Source: Alphaproteobacteria bacterium (GTDB lineage: Bacteria > Pseudomonadota > Alphaproteobacteria > Bin95). Taken from it: DNA of 64,000 nucleotides. How positions within the stretch are numbered: position 1 is the first letter of the stretch; every line of letters starts with the position of its first letter. Where the stretch lies: NCBI GenBank assembly GCA_963665325.3, contig OZ224045.1, forward strand, positions 1,376,001 through 1,440,000. The letters are read 5' to 3'. Below, in pieces: positions 26,735 through 56,434 of the stretch. Under the pieces are notes generated by a model that was not told where the DNA came from, ran no database searches, and saw nothing but the letters and a program-made list of their open reading frames with translations. Made by a program: the position numbers and the translations under genes.

Positions 26735-26938
26735 ATGAAGCCGATGCTTGATCCGGCCCGAGATTTGGCAGGTGCAACGCCGGAGGCGCTGGCGAAGGCC
26801 CTGTTCCGCCGCACGGAGCCGTTACGACCGGGCTCCCGGCGAAAGCGAAAGCCCGTTGTCAGCGATGAGGTCGCATTGGAGAAGACGCCTGCCGATGAGC
26901 CCGGCGACGGTATCCCGCATTTGGCCAAAAGTGTTTGA
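26735..26938 (+). CDS. Small hypothetical ORF convergent with and overlapping the IS1595 transposase 3' end
   Basis: MKPMLDPARDLAGATPEALAKALFRR; overlaps the passenger ORF end. Confidence 0.35.
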   Translation: MKPMLDPARDLAGATPEALAKALFRRTEPLRPGSRRKRKPVVSDEVALEKTPADEPGDGIPHLAKSV

Positions 26939-27799
26939 GTCGCGGATGTGGTGCTTGCTCGCAAACTCGTGGACGTACCGCTGCAGGTGCTTCGGGCTGA
27001 TCTTGTGGAAGGTCCCCTAGAGAGCCCGCTTCAACATGCTCCAGAAGCTCTCCATGCCGTTGCTGTGGACCATGCCGTCCACATACTCGCCAACGCGATG
27101 ATTGACCGCGTCATGGTCGAAATCCGCATCCAGTCCGACATAGCTGCGGTGCTCGTCCGTATAAACGGTAGCGCCGGGCTCGACATGCTCGCGCACGAAA
27201 CCCTGCAAGGTCGGCTTGGTCGTATCGGTTATGACTTCCGCCCGGACTTCGTTGCTATCGCGATCCTTCGCGCCGATAACTGCCGTCATATGGGCCGTGC
27301 CACCGCCCGCGAGCGTCTTGCGCTTTGCCTTTGGCATGTTCGCTTGGCGACCGCCGAAATAGGACTCGTCCACTTCGACCGGACCGTCAAACTGGTCGTC
27401 GTCAATCGCCCATGCCTCCCGGATGCGGTGCAGCATGAACCATGCGGTCGGCTGCGAAACTCCGATGTCGCGTTGCAGCTTCATCGAGGAAACTGACTTG
27501 AGCGAAGTCAGGCAAAGGTAGATGGCGATTGCCCACTTGCGGAGCGGGACTTTCGACGCCTGCATGGCGGTCCCGGTCTTCACCGAGAAGTAGGATCGGC
27601 AGTCCGAACACCAGTAGGGCATTCTCTTGTGGCTTGCTTTCCCGGTACGGAGACTCCCGCACTTCGGGCAATGCCGGCCGTCCGGCCAAATCACGCTCTC
27701 GAACCAAGCTGTCGCGGCGGCTTCATCGGGGAACATGTCCATGAGCTGCACCAGCGTCATGCCTTCGCGGTGTGCTTTGCCTGGGTCTTTCTTGGTCAT
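26822..27799 (-). pseudogene. IS1595-family transposase with in-frame TAG at 27017-27019
   Basis: CPKCG...CSDC Zn ribbon, VEVDESYFGG, YTDE, HSNGMESFWSMLKRAL*GTFHKISPKHLQRYVHEF continuing in frame to TAA at 26822. Confidence 0.85.
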
Positions 27800-48684: not shown

Positions 48685-48725
48685 CAAAGGAAAGGGCCGG
48701 CCCCCGCGCCGGCCCTTTTTCTTTG
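48685..48725. terminator. Probably bidirectional intrinsic terminator
   Basis: AAAGGAAAGGGCCGGC-loop-GCCGGCCCTTTTTCTTT. Confidence 0.75.
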
Positions 48726-49102
48726 GGTGGGGCGACGAGGTGGTCTATGTGGACGAGGGATTACGCGGAAGGGCTAGAACAGAGTTTGCGGTTGAGGCCA
48801 CAAACACGAGGATTGGTACTAGGAGCGAGATAGCACCGGGGCCCAGTCTATAGCGTTGGACGACTTCAAAGCAGATTGCCGGTACCAACTCTTCGGTCTC
48901 TTCAAGCGACGTCGGAAGGCAGGCTCCCAGCATTGTGCAAAGAAATTTTTTGCACCGATGTGCGACGGAATTCGTATTCCAGCCCAATGACAGGACTGCC
49001 AGCCGCGAAAATGACTATTGCTATGATGCCATAGCGGTTCGAGGCGTACAGGAGAAGCAGCAAAAACGCCATACCTGTTTCACAACTCACTGAAAACAGG
49101 CC

Positions 49103-49151
49103 ATGCTTGCCAAGCCGGGACAATCCGTTTGCGTCCTGACTCAGCAAGCAT
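49103..49151 (-). other. Long RNA hairpin immediately 3' of the atypical tRNA
   Basis: ATGCTTGCTGAGTCAGGAC...GTCCCGGCTTGGCAAGCAT, about 19 bp; several pairs are G-U only on the minus strand. Confidence 0.6.
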
Positions 49152-49159
49152 TAGAGTGT

Positions 49160-49247
49160 TGGTGCCCCCGGCGGGATTCGAACCCGCAAGACCAGAGCAG
49201 TCAACCGGTTCCAAACCGGATGCGTTTACCAATTTCGCCACAGGGGC
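49160..49247 (-). tRNA. Atypical type II tRNA: tRNA-Leu-like body with UGG (Pro) anticodon
   Basis: GCCCCTG TG GCG AAATTGGTAAA CGC A TCCGG TT[TGG]AA CCGGT TGACTGCTCTGGTCTT GCGGG TTCGAAT CCCGC CGGGGGC A CCA. Confidence 0.85.
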
Positions 49248-49307
49248 AGGCCCCGCCCCGTTCCGCTTCCAGCTGGTCCGGGGCGAGCGATAGGCATCCT
49301 CCGCCTA

Positions 49308-49856
49308 CTAGCGGTCGGTGCGTTCATTCAGGGTGGCGGCATTCTCGCGGTCTTCCTGTTTGGGGTTCGAGTCGGAGAGCTTGTCTTGAGAGGTCTGGCT
49401 CTCCGACTCCTCGAAAAGTGCTATGGCATCCGGAAGCGGTTTATCGACGAACCACCAAGCGTGGCGTCCATGCCATTTGACTGACTGAAAGCCACAGCCG
49501 CGCTTTGATAAGACGCTTGACAGGTTGACAGCGGGTTTTTCTCCGCCGACGCGAGCGCCAAATTGCGGCATGATTTCAATCAGTTCATGCACGGATAGGG
49601 GATAACCCTTCGCACCAAGGGCCATTCTCGCGCCTTCGAGCATCGTGACCTTCTTGGGCACAATATCTTGTGAAGTGGAAGTGAGTGCATTACTTGGCGT
49701 TGTGTCGTGCCGGAGTCCTAGGAGATCAGTGCGGGCTCTTCGAAGAATCGAAAGCTCACGGTAAAGCGGGCTTTCAGCGAGCTCCGCCTCAAGCTCCTTC
49801 ATCCTTCGCTCAATGGCTGCGAGTGTGTCATTCATAGGGACCACCATCTTTGGCAC
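49308..49856 (-). CDS. Coiled-coil + winged-helix (HARE-HTH-like) hypothetical protein
   Basis: IERRMKELEAELAE coiled coil; LEGARMALGAKGYPLSVHELIE...GGEKPAVNLSSVLSK wHTH-like pattern; start may be ATG 49835. Confidence 0.65.
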   Translation of the reverse strand: MPKMVVPMNDTLAAIERRMKELEAELAESPLYRELSILRRARTDLLGLRHDTTPSNALTSTSQDIVPKKVTMLEGARMALGAKGYPLSVHELIEIMPQFGARVGGEKPAVNLSSVLSKRGCGFQSVKWHGRHAWWFVDKPLPDAIALFEESESQTSQDKLSDSNPKQEDRENAATLNERTDR

Positions 49857-49867
49857 TTGAATGGCAT

Positions 49868-49896
49868 ATTATCGGCATCAACAATGGTCGTGTCAA
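49868..49896 (-). promoter_or_regulatory. sigma70 promoter TTGACA-N17-GATAAT
   Basis: Near-consensus hexamers with a 17-nt spacer, just upstream of the wHTH ORF and tRNA. Confidence 0.65.
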
Positions 49897-50111
49897 TGGG
49901 GAGTGAAGACCAATGGCAAGATTTTTCATTGTCGACAGAAGGTTGCGGAGAAGCCACCCTACACACGCTATGTGACGCGAGAAATGTGAAAATCTGTACC
50001 TTGCAGGCCGGGTCAAAGCAGAATTTCCGCCAACGCTCGGGCCTATGACAGCGGCACGCCCCGGTTTACACTGCTCACCCGGCGCGTCCGGGAAAGGAAG
50101 CCTTCCGAGCC

Positions 50112-53518: not shown

Positions 53519-53649
53519 TCCTCCAGAGGATTGCAAGCCGAAGTAGGGACGCGGCGAGATAAGGGAGCATAGATGGCGCGAATAATGGACATATGAGATT
53601 GACACACTCCTCAGGGATGCGGAGGATGCTCATCGTCAGAGAGGGTTCA

Positions 53650-54303
53650 ATGATTATATTTCAAGGCAGTTGTCCGCACTGCGGAACAAAGAGTGTTGCA
53701 TTTGAAATCATCTACGAACACAAAGTATCAAGATCGACGTCTGTTCATTGGGACACGTTGGCGAGTTGTGGCCAGTGTAACCGAGGAGTCCTCGCTACTT
53801 TCTTGTCTGGAAATGGTCACAAACCAAGCGAATGTTTGCAAAACGGTTGGACTGATCTCTTATCCCCTCCTTATTTGTCTCCGGCACCCCCAGACACTGG
53901 AGCGCCGAAACACACTCCTCCCAATGTGGCTCACTTCTATCGGCAAGGAATGGACAATTTAGGCGGAAACTGGGACGCTGCCGGAATGACCTTTCGTAAG
54001 GCGTTAGACGTAGGCCTTAAGTTCAAATTTCCCGAAGATAGCAATGTATCATTATTTGAGCGGATTAAACGCGCTTCTAAACGGCACGATTTGACACCCG
54101 ATCTGGCGGAATGGGCACATCAGATTCGCTTAGACGGCAACGATGCGGCTCATGAAGAGGAGCCGTTTTCCAAAGAGGATGCGGCGCGTTTGCAGATTTT
54201 CACAAGCTTGGTGTTTCAATACTTGTTCACCTTGCCGGGCATGATGCAAGAAGCACGAGGGGCCGAGATCAGCACAGGTGGGCAGCCAGCTGATGGGACC
54301 TAG
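53650..54303 (+). CDS. Zn-ribbon + DUF4145 (HEPN-like) protein
   Basis: CPHC and CGQC pairs, FRKALD, IRLDGNDAAH, YLFTLPG; low GC. Confidence 0.8.
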   Translation: MIIFQGSCPHCGTKSVAFEIIYEHKVSRSTSVHWDTLASCGQCNRGVLATFLSGNGHKPSECLQNGWTDLLSPPYLSPAPPDTGAPKHTPPNVAHFYRQGMDNLGGNWDAAGMTFRKALDVGLKFKFPEDSNVSLFERIKRASKRHDLTPDLAEWAHQIRLDGNDAAHEEEPFSKEDAARLQIFTSLVFQYLFTLPGMMQEARGAEISTGGQPADGT

Positions 54304-54383
54304 TACCACGCTAAGGCTGGGAACAGAAATCGGACTTGTTTTCGTATCTCATCTCACCCAACCCATTGGAAAATAAGGAAAGA

Positions 54384-54458
54384 TGGCTCCGCGGGTAGGA
54401 TTCGAACCTACGACCAATCGGTTAACAGCCGACCGCTCTACCACTGAGCTACCGCGGA
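54384..54458 (-). tRNA. tRNA-Asn(GTT)
   Basis: Canonical cloverleaf, anticodon loop CTGTTAA, encoded CCA. Confidence 0.96.
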
Positions 54459-54511
54459 ACAGACCCGAACGGGCGCCCTTATAGCGGCCCTTTGCGAGCT
54501 TGGCGAGGGCC

Positions 54512-54585
54512 TGGAGGCGCGGACCGGATTCGAACCGGTGTAAGCGGATTTGCAGTCCGATGGATAGCCACTCTCCCACCGCGCC
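54512..54585 (-). tRNA. tRNA-Cys(GCA)
   Basis: Cloverleaf, anticodon loop CTGCAAA, U73, encoded CCA. Confidence 0.95.
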
Positions 54586-54672
54586 GCCGGGTGCTGGACA
54601 TAAGCCGGAAGCCCGGCGCGGTCAATGCGCGCCGGGCGGTCGCTGCTCGGGACGAGGGAGTCGGCCCCCTGC

Positions 54673-54701
54673 GTCACCCCGGCCCCCGAGCCGGGGTCCA
54701 T
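54673..54701 (+). repeat. REP-like palindrome
   Basis: GTCACCCCGGCCCCCGAGCCGGGGTCCAT. Confidence 0.5.
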
Positions 54702-54805
54702 CCCGCCTCCCTGTTCCCCGCCGAGTTCTTGATCCGGCTTCACCTTGAGCCGTTCGATGCGCTTCAGTAAGGTGCCTCGTTTCATTCTACGCGCGTACAA
54801 ACCTC

Positions 54806-56434
54806 ATGCAGTGGTTGATCCCGCAGCCCTCCGGCGATCCTCTGGCGGTCGAACTCGAAGCCGGTAAGCAAATCTTCGTCGTCGGGCCCAACGGCTCCGG
54901 CAAGTCGGCTCTCCTGCAGCATCTCGCCGCGTCCTCCAGTGAGGGCAAGATCAGACGCATCTTCGCGCACCGCCAGACGTGGCTGAATTCCGGCAGCCTC
55001 ACACTTACCCCCGAGAGTCGGCGTCAGTTCGAAGGCAACAGGCGCAGGTACGAGACCGCCCGAGACTCCCTCTGGAGAGACCACACGGGAGCCCAGACCC
55101 ATGCGGCCGTCCTCTTCGACCTCGTGGCCGCCGAGAACAAGCGGGCCCGCTCAATCGCGAAGTATATGGAGAACGGCAGGATCGAGTGTGCCGAAAAGAC
55201 CGCCAACATTGCCTCCCCGTTCACGCGGCTGAACGACCTTCTGGCACTGGGCACACTCCAAGTCTCGCTAGACAACTCAGACGACGTCGAGATCGTGGCG
55301 CGCAAGGGTCCCGGTCCAACTTTCGGCATCGAGAGGATGTCCGACGGCGAACGCAATGCCGTCATCATGGCGGCCACCGTGCTGACGGTCGACCCGGGGA
55401 CCACGCTATTGATTGATGAGCCGGAGCGCCACTTGCACCGTGCCATCATCGCCCCGTTCCTTTCCGCCCTGTTCGAGCAGCGACAGGACTGCGCGTTCGT
55501 CGTCTCCACCCATGAGCTGTTCCTGCCCGTCGAGAATCCGGATGCCCGCGTGCTGATGACGCGCTCTTGCACTTGGGCGGGGGACAACCCTCAAGCCTGG
55601 AAGCTCGAGCTGCTCGCGCAACCCGCCGAATTGCCCGAGGAACTGCGGCTCGCCGTCCTGGGCGCCAGGAGCCGCGTGCTGTTCGTCGAAGGTTCGTCGT
55701 CCAGCCTCGACCTGCCGCTATACGACACCCTTTTCCCCGGATTGTCGGTCTCGCCCCGCGGGAATTGCGTCGACGTCGAGCGGGCCGTGCGCGGTCTGCG
55801 CGCCACCGCGGATCGACATCATGTTGAGGCTTACGGCGTCGTCGATCAGGACGACCGCGATGACGCAGCGGTTGAGAAACTCGCTATGGAGGGCATTTTC
55901 GCGCTGGCAGTGCGATCCGTCGAGTCGCTGTACTACTGTTCCGATGCCATGCAGGCCATCGCGCGACACCAGGCGGACTCCATGGGTCTCGACGCCGAGA
56001 AGCTGGCGGCGTCAGCGAAGCGGGACGCCCTCTCCGCGCTTGAGCAGGAGGAGGTCATTGAGCGGATGGCCGCGCGCCGGTGCGAGCGGCGCATGCGCGA
56101 CACTGCCCTCAGCCAGCTGCCGGACTGGAAGACCATCCGATCCGCAACCGGCCCGACCATCAACCTGCATGTCCCGTCCGCCTACGCTGACGAGGTCGCC
56201 CAGTTCCGGCAACTTCTGGCAGACAAGGACTTCGATGCGCTCGTCGCACGGTATCCGCTACGCGAGACCAAGGCTTTCGATGTGATCGCCAAGGCCCTTA
56301 AATGCGCCTCGACGCGTGATTACCAGCAGATGGTTGCGGTACGCACCGCCAAAGACGACACGTTGGCGACTGCTCTGACGAGTCGCCTCCAACCATTGGC
56401 GGATGCGATCGCTCCCGCCATGGTTGGGTCGTAG
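54806..56434 (+). CDS. ABC/AAA ATPase fused to a TOPRIM-like (DUF4435-like) domain; PARIS-like
   Basis: GPNGSGKS, MSDGER, LIDEPERHLH, VSTH; C-terminal VLFVEG...D and GVVDQD. Confidence 0.72.
   Translation: MQWLIPQPSGDPLAVELEAGKQIFVVGPNGSGKSALLQHLAASSSEGKIRRIFAHRQTWLNSGSLTLTPESRRQFEGNRRRYETARDSLWRDHTGAQTHAAVLFDLVAAENKRARSIAKYMENGRIECAEKTANIASPFTRLNDLLALGTLQVSLDNSDDVEIVARKGPGPTFGIERMSDGERNAVIMAATVLTVDPGTTLLIDEPERHLHRAIIAPFLSALFEQRQDCAFVVSTHELFLPVENPDARVLMTRSCTWAGDNPQAWKLELLAQPAELPEELRLAVLGARSRVLFVEGSSSSLDLPLYDTLFPGLSVSPRGNCVDVERAVRGLRATADRHHVEAYGVVDQDDRDDAAVEKLAMEGIFALAVRSVESLYYCSDAMQAIARHQADSMGLDAEKLAASAKRDALSALEQEEVIERMAARRCERRMRDTALSQLPDWKTIRSATGPTINLHVPSAYADEVAQFRQLLADKDFDALVARYPLRETKAFDVIAKALKCASTRDYQQMVAVRTAKDDTLATALTSRLQPLADAIAPAMVGS

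Follow-up and report, generated by a model that had tools for sequence, protein, structure and literature searches.

A leucine-type class II tRNA gene with a proline (UGG) anticodon on a small strain-specific insertion in an alphaproteobacterium, a candidate Pro-to-Leu missense suppressor

Introduction

Natural tRNAs whose body and anticodon point to different amino acids are rare and much studied, and they show that cells can tolerate or use mistranslation. Within the accessible part of a 2024 review (PMC11415595), tRNA-ProX with its synthetase ProRSx, from Streptomyces and Kitasatospora, is the sole family under the heading of bacterial dual-identity tRNAs. In yeast, an engineered tRNA-Leu(UGG) is reported to mis-incorporate leucine at proline codons at a growth cost that the body mutation G26A softens (PMC11028032, accessible portion). 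Here, we analyze a 64,000-nt stretch from an Alphaproteobacteria bacterium (GenBank assembly GCA_963665325.3, contig OZ224045.1, positions 1,376,001 to 1,440,000), hereafter the window, which holds at 49160-49247 on the minus strand an 88-nt class II tRNA gene that combines a leucine-type body with the proline anticodon UGG. Our reading, which we judge to be evenly poised between right and wrong, is that this gene, carried on mobile DNA, encodes an anticodon-shifted tRNA of leucine identity and thus a candidate Pro-to-Leu missense suppressor.

A search of the literature returned no natural bacterial tRNA with a leucine body and a proline anticodon and no link between IS1595 elements and tRNAs; subscription journals and supplements lay beyond its reach, and a report may exist there. 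The consulted text of the paper that describes the allo-tRNAs (Mukai et al. 2017, PMC5389517) contains none of the terms "UGG," "LeuRS," or "proline."

Results

An intact tRNA gene with anticodon UGG

ARAGORN, applied to the window, called a tRNA-Pro with anticodon tgg at 49160-49247 on the minus strand, and Rfam model RF00005 matched the same interval with 59.8 bits, where the gathering score is 29 (E 2e-10, model positions 1-71). Position numbers follow our own reading of the sequence as laid on the Rfam model alignment. The acceptor stem comprises 7 bp, from G1-C72 to G7-C66 with U6-G67 among them, and is followed by U8, a 3-bp D stem (GCG/CGC), and a D loop (AAAUUGGUAAA) that carries A14, A15, G18G19, and an A following U20 (A20a). 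The anticodon stem contains a single U27-U43 mismatch and closes a loop of U32 U33 U34 G35 G36 A37 A38 (UU-UGG-AA). The variable region of 16 nt forms a 4-bp stem and ends in U48, the T loop reads UUCGAAU with U54, U55, C56, and A58 all present, the acceptor/T-stem geometry is 7/5, and A73 precedes an encoded CCA. All structural features listed for this gene in the first-pass annotation, which had left the strand unstated, are therefore present by ARAGORN, by Rfam, and in the sequence itself.

This assignment is further supported by a pattern that joins the leucine-type D arm to an anticodon without A35, which found one match in the window and none in 100 shuffles. When pair 27-43 is kept open, the cloverleaf has a calculated energy of −32.5 kcal/mol, while the fold of minimum free energy, at −35.5 kcal/mol, takes another shape; we do not read this gap of 3 kcal/mol as evidence against a tRNA. 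A second ARAGORN call, a tRNA-Arg(tcg) on the plus strand at 49144-49231, was rejected as the mirror image of the same gene; the sole Rfam hit on that strand is to tRNA-Sec and falls below threshold (25.1 bits, threshold 47).

Contigs that cover the gene were found in sequencing runs X1 (1,457 nt), X3 (1,831 nt), and X4 (1,074 nt), which belong to two studies and carry identical letters; one of these runs is possibly the sample from which the genome derives. Among the matches listed, the run contigs show no differing letter anywhere between 48605 and 50256. None of the runs listed with this stretch was an RNA run. An assembly error at the anticodon, a doubt that the first-pass annotation had raised, is unlikely because contigs of three runs from two studies agree across the gene. 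Overall, 49160-49247 is a real tRNA gene, intact in structure.

Leucine ancestry and expected charging

The genome (5 contigs, 5.58 Mb, 67% GC) encodes five resident tRNA-Leu genes that cover all five anticodons and three resident tRNA-Pro genes (UGG, CGG, and GGG), each 77 nt long and each with C1-G72, so that the gene in the window is an extra one beside normal leucine and proline sets. Isotype was judged by identity to the genome's own tRNAs, among which the closest are tRNA-Leu with anticodons tag and cag (72.7% each) and caa (69.3%), and no tRNA-Pro appears in the best 14 matches. Ordinary tRNA-Leu genes, at 70-74% identity, are with one exception also the best full-length matches found across 60 related genomes. 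The proposal of a leucine-type body under a proline anticodon thus stands. Its anticodon, UGG, does not carry the A35 of leucine anticodons, and its 16-nt arm and G1-C72 pair differ from the short variable loop and C1-G72 of tRNA-Pro; the gene is no leucine decoder yet may be a substrate for leucyl-tRNA synthetase (LeuRS).

In E. coli, A73 is crucial for tRNA-Leu while the anticodon and the variable arm are not, and A15-U48, G18G19, A20a, G18:U55, G19-C56, and U54:A58 also matter; the determinants of tRNA-Pro are G72, G35, G36, A73, G15-C48, and G37 (both lists as given in the consulted part of PMC9976931). Measured against these lists, the window tRNA carries the whole leucine set (A73, A15-U48, G18G19, A20a, and the T-loop partners) and three of the proline determinants (G35, G36, and A73), having C72, A15-U48, and A37 in place of G72, G15-C48, and G37. 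Charging by LeuRS and reading of CCA and CCG as leucine are favored because the tRNA has the whole leucine list and half of the proline list. The genome has one LeuRS gene, without a paralogue, and one prolyl-tRNA synthetase (ProRS) of bacterial type, also without a paralogue, whose 452-aa frame does not include the middle of the profile and whose gene lies 1.29 Mb from the tRNA on the same contig.

The same determinants introduce the possibility of a remoulded proline tRNA, in which ProRS would charge the molecule through G35, G36, and A73, making it an extra, mobile class II tRNA-Pro(UGG) that causes no mistranslation. The anticodon bases and A73 are indeed major ProRS determinants in the E. 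coli list, whereas C72, A15-U48, and A37 all depart from what an E. coli-type ProRS uses, and the host enzyme is of bacterial type with three of three resident tRNA-Pro showing C1-G72. On balance, we regard this explanation as unlikely, and the relatives described below bear on it further.

A small, strain-specific insertion carries the tRNA

The tRNA gene lies in a low-GC insertion of 1,326 bp (48725-50050, hereafter the cassette), delimited by GC content and by the flanks in congeners. GC is 0.56-0.57 within it versus about 0.68 in the flanks, and it directly follows the terminator of an upstream molybdopterin-enzyme gene. The insert is present in none of 16 congeners and hence in 1 of the 17 genomes of the genus; the flanks of the empty site abut in G011 and G012 and lie, by BLAST coordinates, 5-9 nt apart in G008, G007, and G005. 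This observation is further strengthened by variant contigs in runs X1 and X4 that join 48724/5 straight to 50051/3. The tRNA is carried on a small, recent, strain-specific insertion that may have been horizontally acquired, a context that the first-pass annotation had missed along with the link of the wider family to IS1595 transposases. The cassette is single-copy in the genome. A repeat search found neither a target duplication nor terminal inverted repeats at its ends, these ends do not resemble the insertion sequence (IS) ends in genome G191 described below, and the cassette neither contains nor adjoins a transposase gene.

Read along the minus strand, the cassette shows first a sigma-70-like promoter (49868-49896, TTGACA-17-GATAAT) that matches the consensus at 11 of 12 positions and stands 5' of both the protein gene and the tRNA; as consensus matches only, two promoter-like sites occur in the region versus 0.6 expected from shuffles. 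There follow a gene for a 175-aa protein (49308-49835, frame open to 49856, conserved start at M8), a 60-nt spacer, the tRNA, and an imperfect inverted repeat of 19 nt (49103-49151, minus strand, 79% complementary) that could form a hairpin and begins 9 nt past the CCA. About 350 nt farther, near the downstream end, lies a weak terminator-like hairpin (48784-48805, minus strand) from a consensus scan that found one such site against 1.5 expected. Pfam gave no match to an 81-aa frame at 48902-49147. The genome holds the 3' end of the upstream molybdopterin-enzyme gene once more, at 97% identity, at G000:C1:1236202-1237026.

These features also bear on whether the window copy is a silent hitch-hiker, that is, a passenger, neutral or in decay, that is unexpressed or unmatured whatever its relatives do. 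The U27-U43 mismatch, the single copy, and the confinement to one genome of the genus would agree with such a fate, and silencing would be selected if a Pro-to-Leu activity were costly. Against this, the mismatch is the only defect in the stems and conserved loop bases, CCA is encoded, a promoter with an 11/12 match lies upstream, and the contigs of three runs carry the identical sequence, so that we consider a silent passenger improbable.

The cassette protein and a sister cassette in a congener

The 175-aa protein combines a coiled-coil-like N-terminal part with a part that weakly resembles HARE-HTH, and its Pfam matches are limited to sub-threshold HARE-HTH and Csm6-HEPN. Besides the protein itself, five homologues were found among 5.8 billion proteins, aligning from M8. 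We suggest that the protein may be a DNA-binding regulator of the cassette. Congener G002 encodes a 162-aa homologue that is 52% identical (E 5e-63), followed by a conserved spacer (66% DNA identity) and by a class II tRNA with A73, CCA, a 29-nt variable arm, and the glycine anticodon GCC, which Rfam scores at 51.9 bits and ARAGORN missed. The gene for the cassette protein occurs in 2 of 37 genomes of the bacterial family, namely the window genome and G002. As judged from sequence, we propose a cassette type that consists of a gene for a small helix-turn-helix (HTH)-like protein and an anticodon-shifted class II tRNA, with two instances, UGG in the window and GCC in G002.

G191 carries two copies of a 1,947-bp IS whose passengers include a more distant homologue of the cassette protein, with no tRNA accompanying it. 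This IS (L286:1101-3047 and L288) has GGTAGTGGTACAGTTT inverted repeats and an 8-bp duplication, its copies are 99.95% identical, and it contains an IS1-like transposase and a 103-aa open reading frame (ORF) in addition to the distant homologue; the L286 copy interrupts a dehydrogenase-like gene.

A wider family of leucine-type class II tRNAs with other anticodons

The leucine-type D arm combined with a non-A35 anticodon was sought in one genome per species and gave at least 117 matches. Most of the matches listed are tRNA-Leu genes split by an insert (L021-L137, e.g., L022, L030, and L043) that is long, conserved, and placed right after U33/U34; in our own reading of the sequence, these inserts look like group I introns. 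Intact genes among the matches listed carry UGG (L070 and L115), UUA, UUU, UGC, CGC/GGC/GCG, GUU, CUG, UCU, and GGU. A strict pattern (D arm, T arm, and UGG) returned 66 metagenome contigs, and a viral scan that allowed any non-A35 anticodon returned 68 contigs, 2 of them with UGG. Together with at least 2 genome contigs and the window tRNA, the 66 metagenome and 2 viral UGG genes make up a set of 71 UGG genes. This is a rare family, with matches to the strict pattern in 2 of 401 genomes of the class; the only other matching genome, G215, has two odd class II tRNAs with CGC and GUC (L326 and L327). No synteny was found between the window and L070.

The 71 UGG genes are well preserved, with a perfect 7-bp acceptor stem in 61, a perfect anticodon stem in 60, A73 in 68, and an encoded CCA in 22. 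Position 37 is A in 52 and G in 19, and C1-G72 occurs in 3 while most keep G1-C72. Their variable arms fall into classes of 13-20 nt (37 genes) and 24-31 nt (34 genes). Among the 26 distinct members with a short arm, 98.7% of cells are paired and both sides change in 15 of 20 pairs, a level reached in 0 of 500 shuffles, with slid controls pairing at 38-46%; this set is what remained of 36 sequences after removal of 8 malformed ones (acceptor with fewer than 6 pairs or anticodon stem with fewer than 4) and 2 duplicates, a filter that raises the paired share. Homologous UGG scaffolds in other genomes and in the 66 metagenome contigs, together with these compensatory stem changes, agree with the earlier view that the gene is not decaying, and the window copy is not a singleton among homologues that all carry leucine anticodons. 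As to whether UGG is conserved or varies among homologues, UGG homologues exist and close relatives have other anticodons, namely UGA in L183 and UUA in L138, which is 82.6% identical and shares the acceptor stem. In a separate viral scan, which was blind to the anticodon, genes with the D-arm and T-loop type of the window tRNA carry UGA, UAA, UGG, and one odd case, and the same type occurs with the true leucine anticodon UAA in L328. These comparisons suggest that the window tRNA belongs to a widespread family descended from class II leucine tRNAs whose anticodon is no longer that of leucine, a proposition that in our estimate could fall either way with equal ease.

The scaffold does not seem confined to one identity. 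Phage contigs hold the same scaffold with glutamine, asparagine, and histidine anticodons and with an acceptor end that matches (U1-A72 with G73; G-1 with C73). Such loci with UUG (Gln), GUU (Asn), and GUG (His) include L141, L146, L147, L151, L169, L187, and other viral contigs, with arrays in L072, L103, L112, and L130. The leucine-type scaffold thus seems to be reused for other identities in phage contigs and large tRNA arrays, and scaffold shape alone is no proof of leucine identity because the phage Gln, Asn, and His tRNAs have matching acceptor ends. Separately, leucine-type class II tRNAs that combine A73 with an alanine (CGC, GGC) or arginine (GCG) anticodon recur in the Gemmatimonadota metagenome-assembled genomes L074, L089, L096, and L025, and L125 (labeled Halomicronema) belongs with them.

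For the remoulded proline tRNA, the phage reassignments and the minority of UGG genes with C1-G72 or G37 count in its favor, whereas A73 is kept in nearly all of the 71 genes and G1-C72, the usual leucine arrangement, in most. A73 is not known as the bacterial glycine discriminator, and for this reason the GCC tRNA of G002 does not look reassigned, a further point against remoulding. Taken together, the UGG family, with its predominance of G1-C72 and A73, and the GCC tRNA look unreassigned, which is consistent with the reading of retained leucine identity.

A one-sided link to IS1595 transposases

An IS1595-family transposase (Pfam DDE_Tnp_IS1595 with a zinc ribbon) lies within about 2.6 kb of 42 of the 71 UGG genes, a count to be read with the fact that many of the remaining contigs end too soon to show one. 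The IS, about 1 kb long, may point either way and in most cases begins 30-110 nt past the tRNA. The 23-nt inverted repeats of L241 flank the transposase only and leave the tRNA outside. When the closest transposase loci in the 401 genomes were inspected, 27 of 29 had no adjoining tRNA, one had a class II UGG tRNA (L295), and one call was dubious; L323, from an unpublished genome, is not among these loci. The link between these tRNAs and IS1595 is one-sided. In about 15 of 68 cases, another tRNA-like 3' end lies 10-30 nt ahead of the UGG gene. At the window cassette, there is no IS1595 element nearby; the nearest IS1595-type gene is a transposase gene of that family at window positions 26879-27760, whose frame contains one TAG. 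Four further IS1595-type matches occur in the genome, one of them a fragment, and none adjoins a tRNA.

This proximity raises the prospect of a non-decoding, tRNA-like module that serves a mobile element, for example as a processing signal, as an insertion landmark for a transposase or integrase, or as a decoy, with no role in translation. The 42 transposase neighbors and their usual spacing, the placement of some UGG genes just after tRNA-like 3' ends, and the differing anticodons of close relatives (UUA in L138, UGA in L183, and GCC in G002) would fit such a module. Set against them are features that serve only charging and decoding, with A73 in 68 and a fully paired acceptor in 61 of the 71 genes, neither imposed by the search pattern, and with a 7-nt anticodon loop, U33, and a purine at 37, all of which the pattern imposes. 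In addition, the transposase family needs no tRNA, as 27 of 29 loci show, and the window cassette has no transposase, and we rate a purely non-decoding role as quite unlikely. A Leu-charged decoder thus remains our preferred reading.

Two narrower ideas were tried and rejected. A tRNA carried inside the IS is at odds with 23 loci in which no terminal inverted repeats enclose tRNA and transposase, with the same IS standing in either orientation after related tRNAs, and with L213, where the tRNA and a downstream small ORF occur without a transposase. A private code, in which conserved leucines of the transposase would be written as proline codons or in-frame stops would be read by UUA tRNAs, was rejected as the frames are open; at 6 conserved-leucine columns across 32 transposases, the tRNA-linked proteins have leucine or a similar residue, and proline occurs mainly in the window genome's own tRNA-less copies.

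Other ORFs recur around these loci. An ORF of about 48 aa with the motif GPKPDTLKIEG.W.DAVKKSL.KKKP..GWPK accompanies the IS1595 transposase beside UGG tRNAs at 18 loci, including L261, L234, L239, and L245; it is found in L213 (+198..+350 after the tRNA) although the transposase is missing there, and it was not found in the window genome. A recurring module (L008:954-1588 in G032; L035, L097, and L204) joins a leucine-type class II tRNA with the ochre anticodon UUA or the alanine anticodon UGC, an ORF of about 120 aa, and a short class I tRNA with GCU or ACU, and an IS1595 transposase lies near it in L035, L097, and L204. The cassette protein is not similar to the small ORF of L008. In G385, a class II UGG tRNA (L295:285-369) is found downstream of the closest relative of the L070 transposase; this tRNA has the same T arm as the window tRNA but C33 in place of U33.

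Other features of the window

Elsewhere in the window, the region 53593-56434 holds tRNA-Asn and tRNA-Cys genes (54384-54585) between a DUF4145 gene in a low-GC patch and an AAA_21/DUF4435 ATPase gene; DUF4145 and AAA_21/DUF4435 domains are often seen in defense islands. The segment 40000-41000 has a very low GC of 0.44 versus about 0.68.

Discussion

The order of the cassette suggests a simple route from gene to effect. Its promoter would transcribe the small protein gene together with the tRNA, RNase P and 3' processing would release the tRNA, and LeuRS, blind to the anticodon, would charge it with leucine. At CCA and CCG codons, the product would then compete with the resident tRNA-Pro(UGG), and the outcome would be a low-level Pro-to-Leu substitution, with some prolylation by ProRS possible; expression and competition with the resident tRNA-Pro would set its level. 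We find this account plausible, the more so in view of the family and the sister cassette, and the insertion of leucine at proline codons may be deliberate.

Several points weigh against it. The identity rules for LeuRS and ProRS are those of E. coli, another organism than the host. By PMC9976931, ProRS depends strongly on G35, G36, and A73, which makes prolylation possible, and 3 of 71 family members have C1-G72 and 19 of 71 G37. The phage Gln, Asn, and His tRNAs with matching acceptor ends indicate that the scaffold is truly reassignable. UGG was imposed by the metagenome search pattern, and that scan is no evidence that UGG is conserved. The U27-U43 mismatch of the window copy stands against a perfect anticodon stem in most relatives. 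Finally, CCG is the commonest proline codon, with 3,326 of 5,536 proline codons in a crude ORF set of the genome, and because it is the main one, efficient leucine insertion should be costly and strong activity should harm the host; from this would follow low or regulated expression, perhaps through the HTH-like protein, or silence.

A broader proposal, which we put forward only tentatively, is that mobile cassettes and IS1595-linked loci spread "code-bending," Leu-charged class II tRNAs for proline (UGG, AGG), glycine (GCC), ochre (UUA), alanine, lysine, and serine codons. If so, such tRNAs would give a host, or a mobile element, a substitution or read-through activity that acts across the proteome and can be switched, perhaps under the control of the HTH-like protein, and they would be the leucine-identity counterpart of allo-tRNAs and tRNA-ProX, on mobile DNA. 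A leucine scaffold with a proline anticodon would add a second, independent bacterial route to encoded mistranslation and would tie it to horizontal transfer. Natural anticodon variants would moreover let the handling of such hybrids by LeuRS, ProRS, EF-Tu, TrmD, and EF-P be tested, with the empty-site congeners as a natural control.

The comparison with known systems gives partial likenesses. Like tRNA-ProX, as presented in the consulted part of PMC11415595, the window tRNA is natural and bacterial, sets body identity and anticodon at odds, is encoded by an extra gene, and is a candidate for deliberate mistranslation. tRNA-ProX has a proline body, alanine, asparagine, or threonine anticodons, A33 with A34, and an adjacent synthetase paralogue, whereas the window tRNA has a leucine-type body, a proline anticodon, U33 with U34, no extra synthetase, and a place on a small insertion. 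With the allo-tRNAs (PMC5389517, consulted text), it shares a long variable arm and an origin in environmental bacteria or metagenomes; allo-tRNAs have many non-cognate anticodons and an anticodon-blind synthetase, and they show 8/4 or 9/3 acceptor/T-stem geometry and serine identity, in contrast to the 7/5 geometry, A73, and leucine-type D arm found here. The design equals that of the engineered yeast tRNA-Leu(UGG), which, in the accessible portion of PMC11028032, is a laboratory construct in a eukaryote, while the window gene is natural, bacterial, and on mobile DNA. The tRNA-Ser(CAG) of CUG-clade yeasts is likewise a natural class II tRNA with the anticodon of another codon box, and it represents a clade-wide, fixed nuclear reassignment (PMC11415595, in the part consulted), whereas the window gene is sporadic and accessory in a genome that keeps its normal tRNA-Pro set. 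What is new relative to these body/anticodon-mismatched tRNAs is carriage on mobile DNA.
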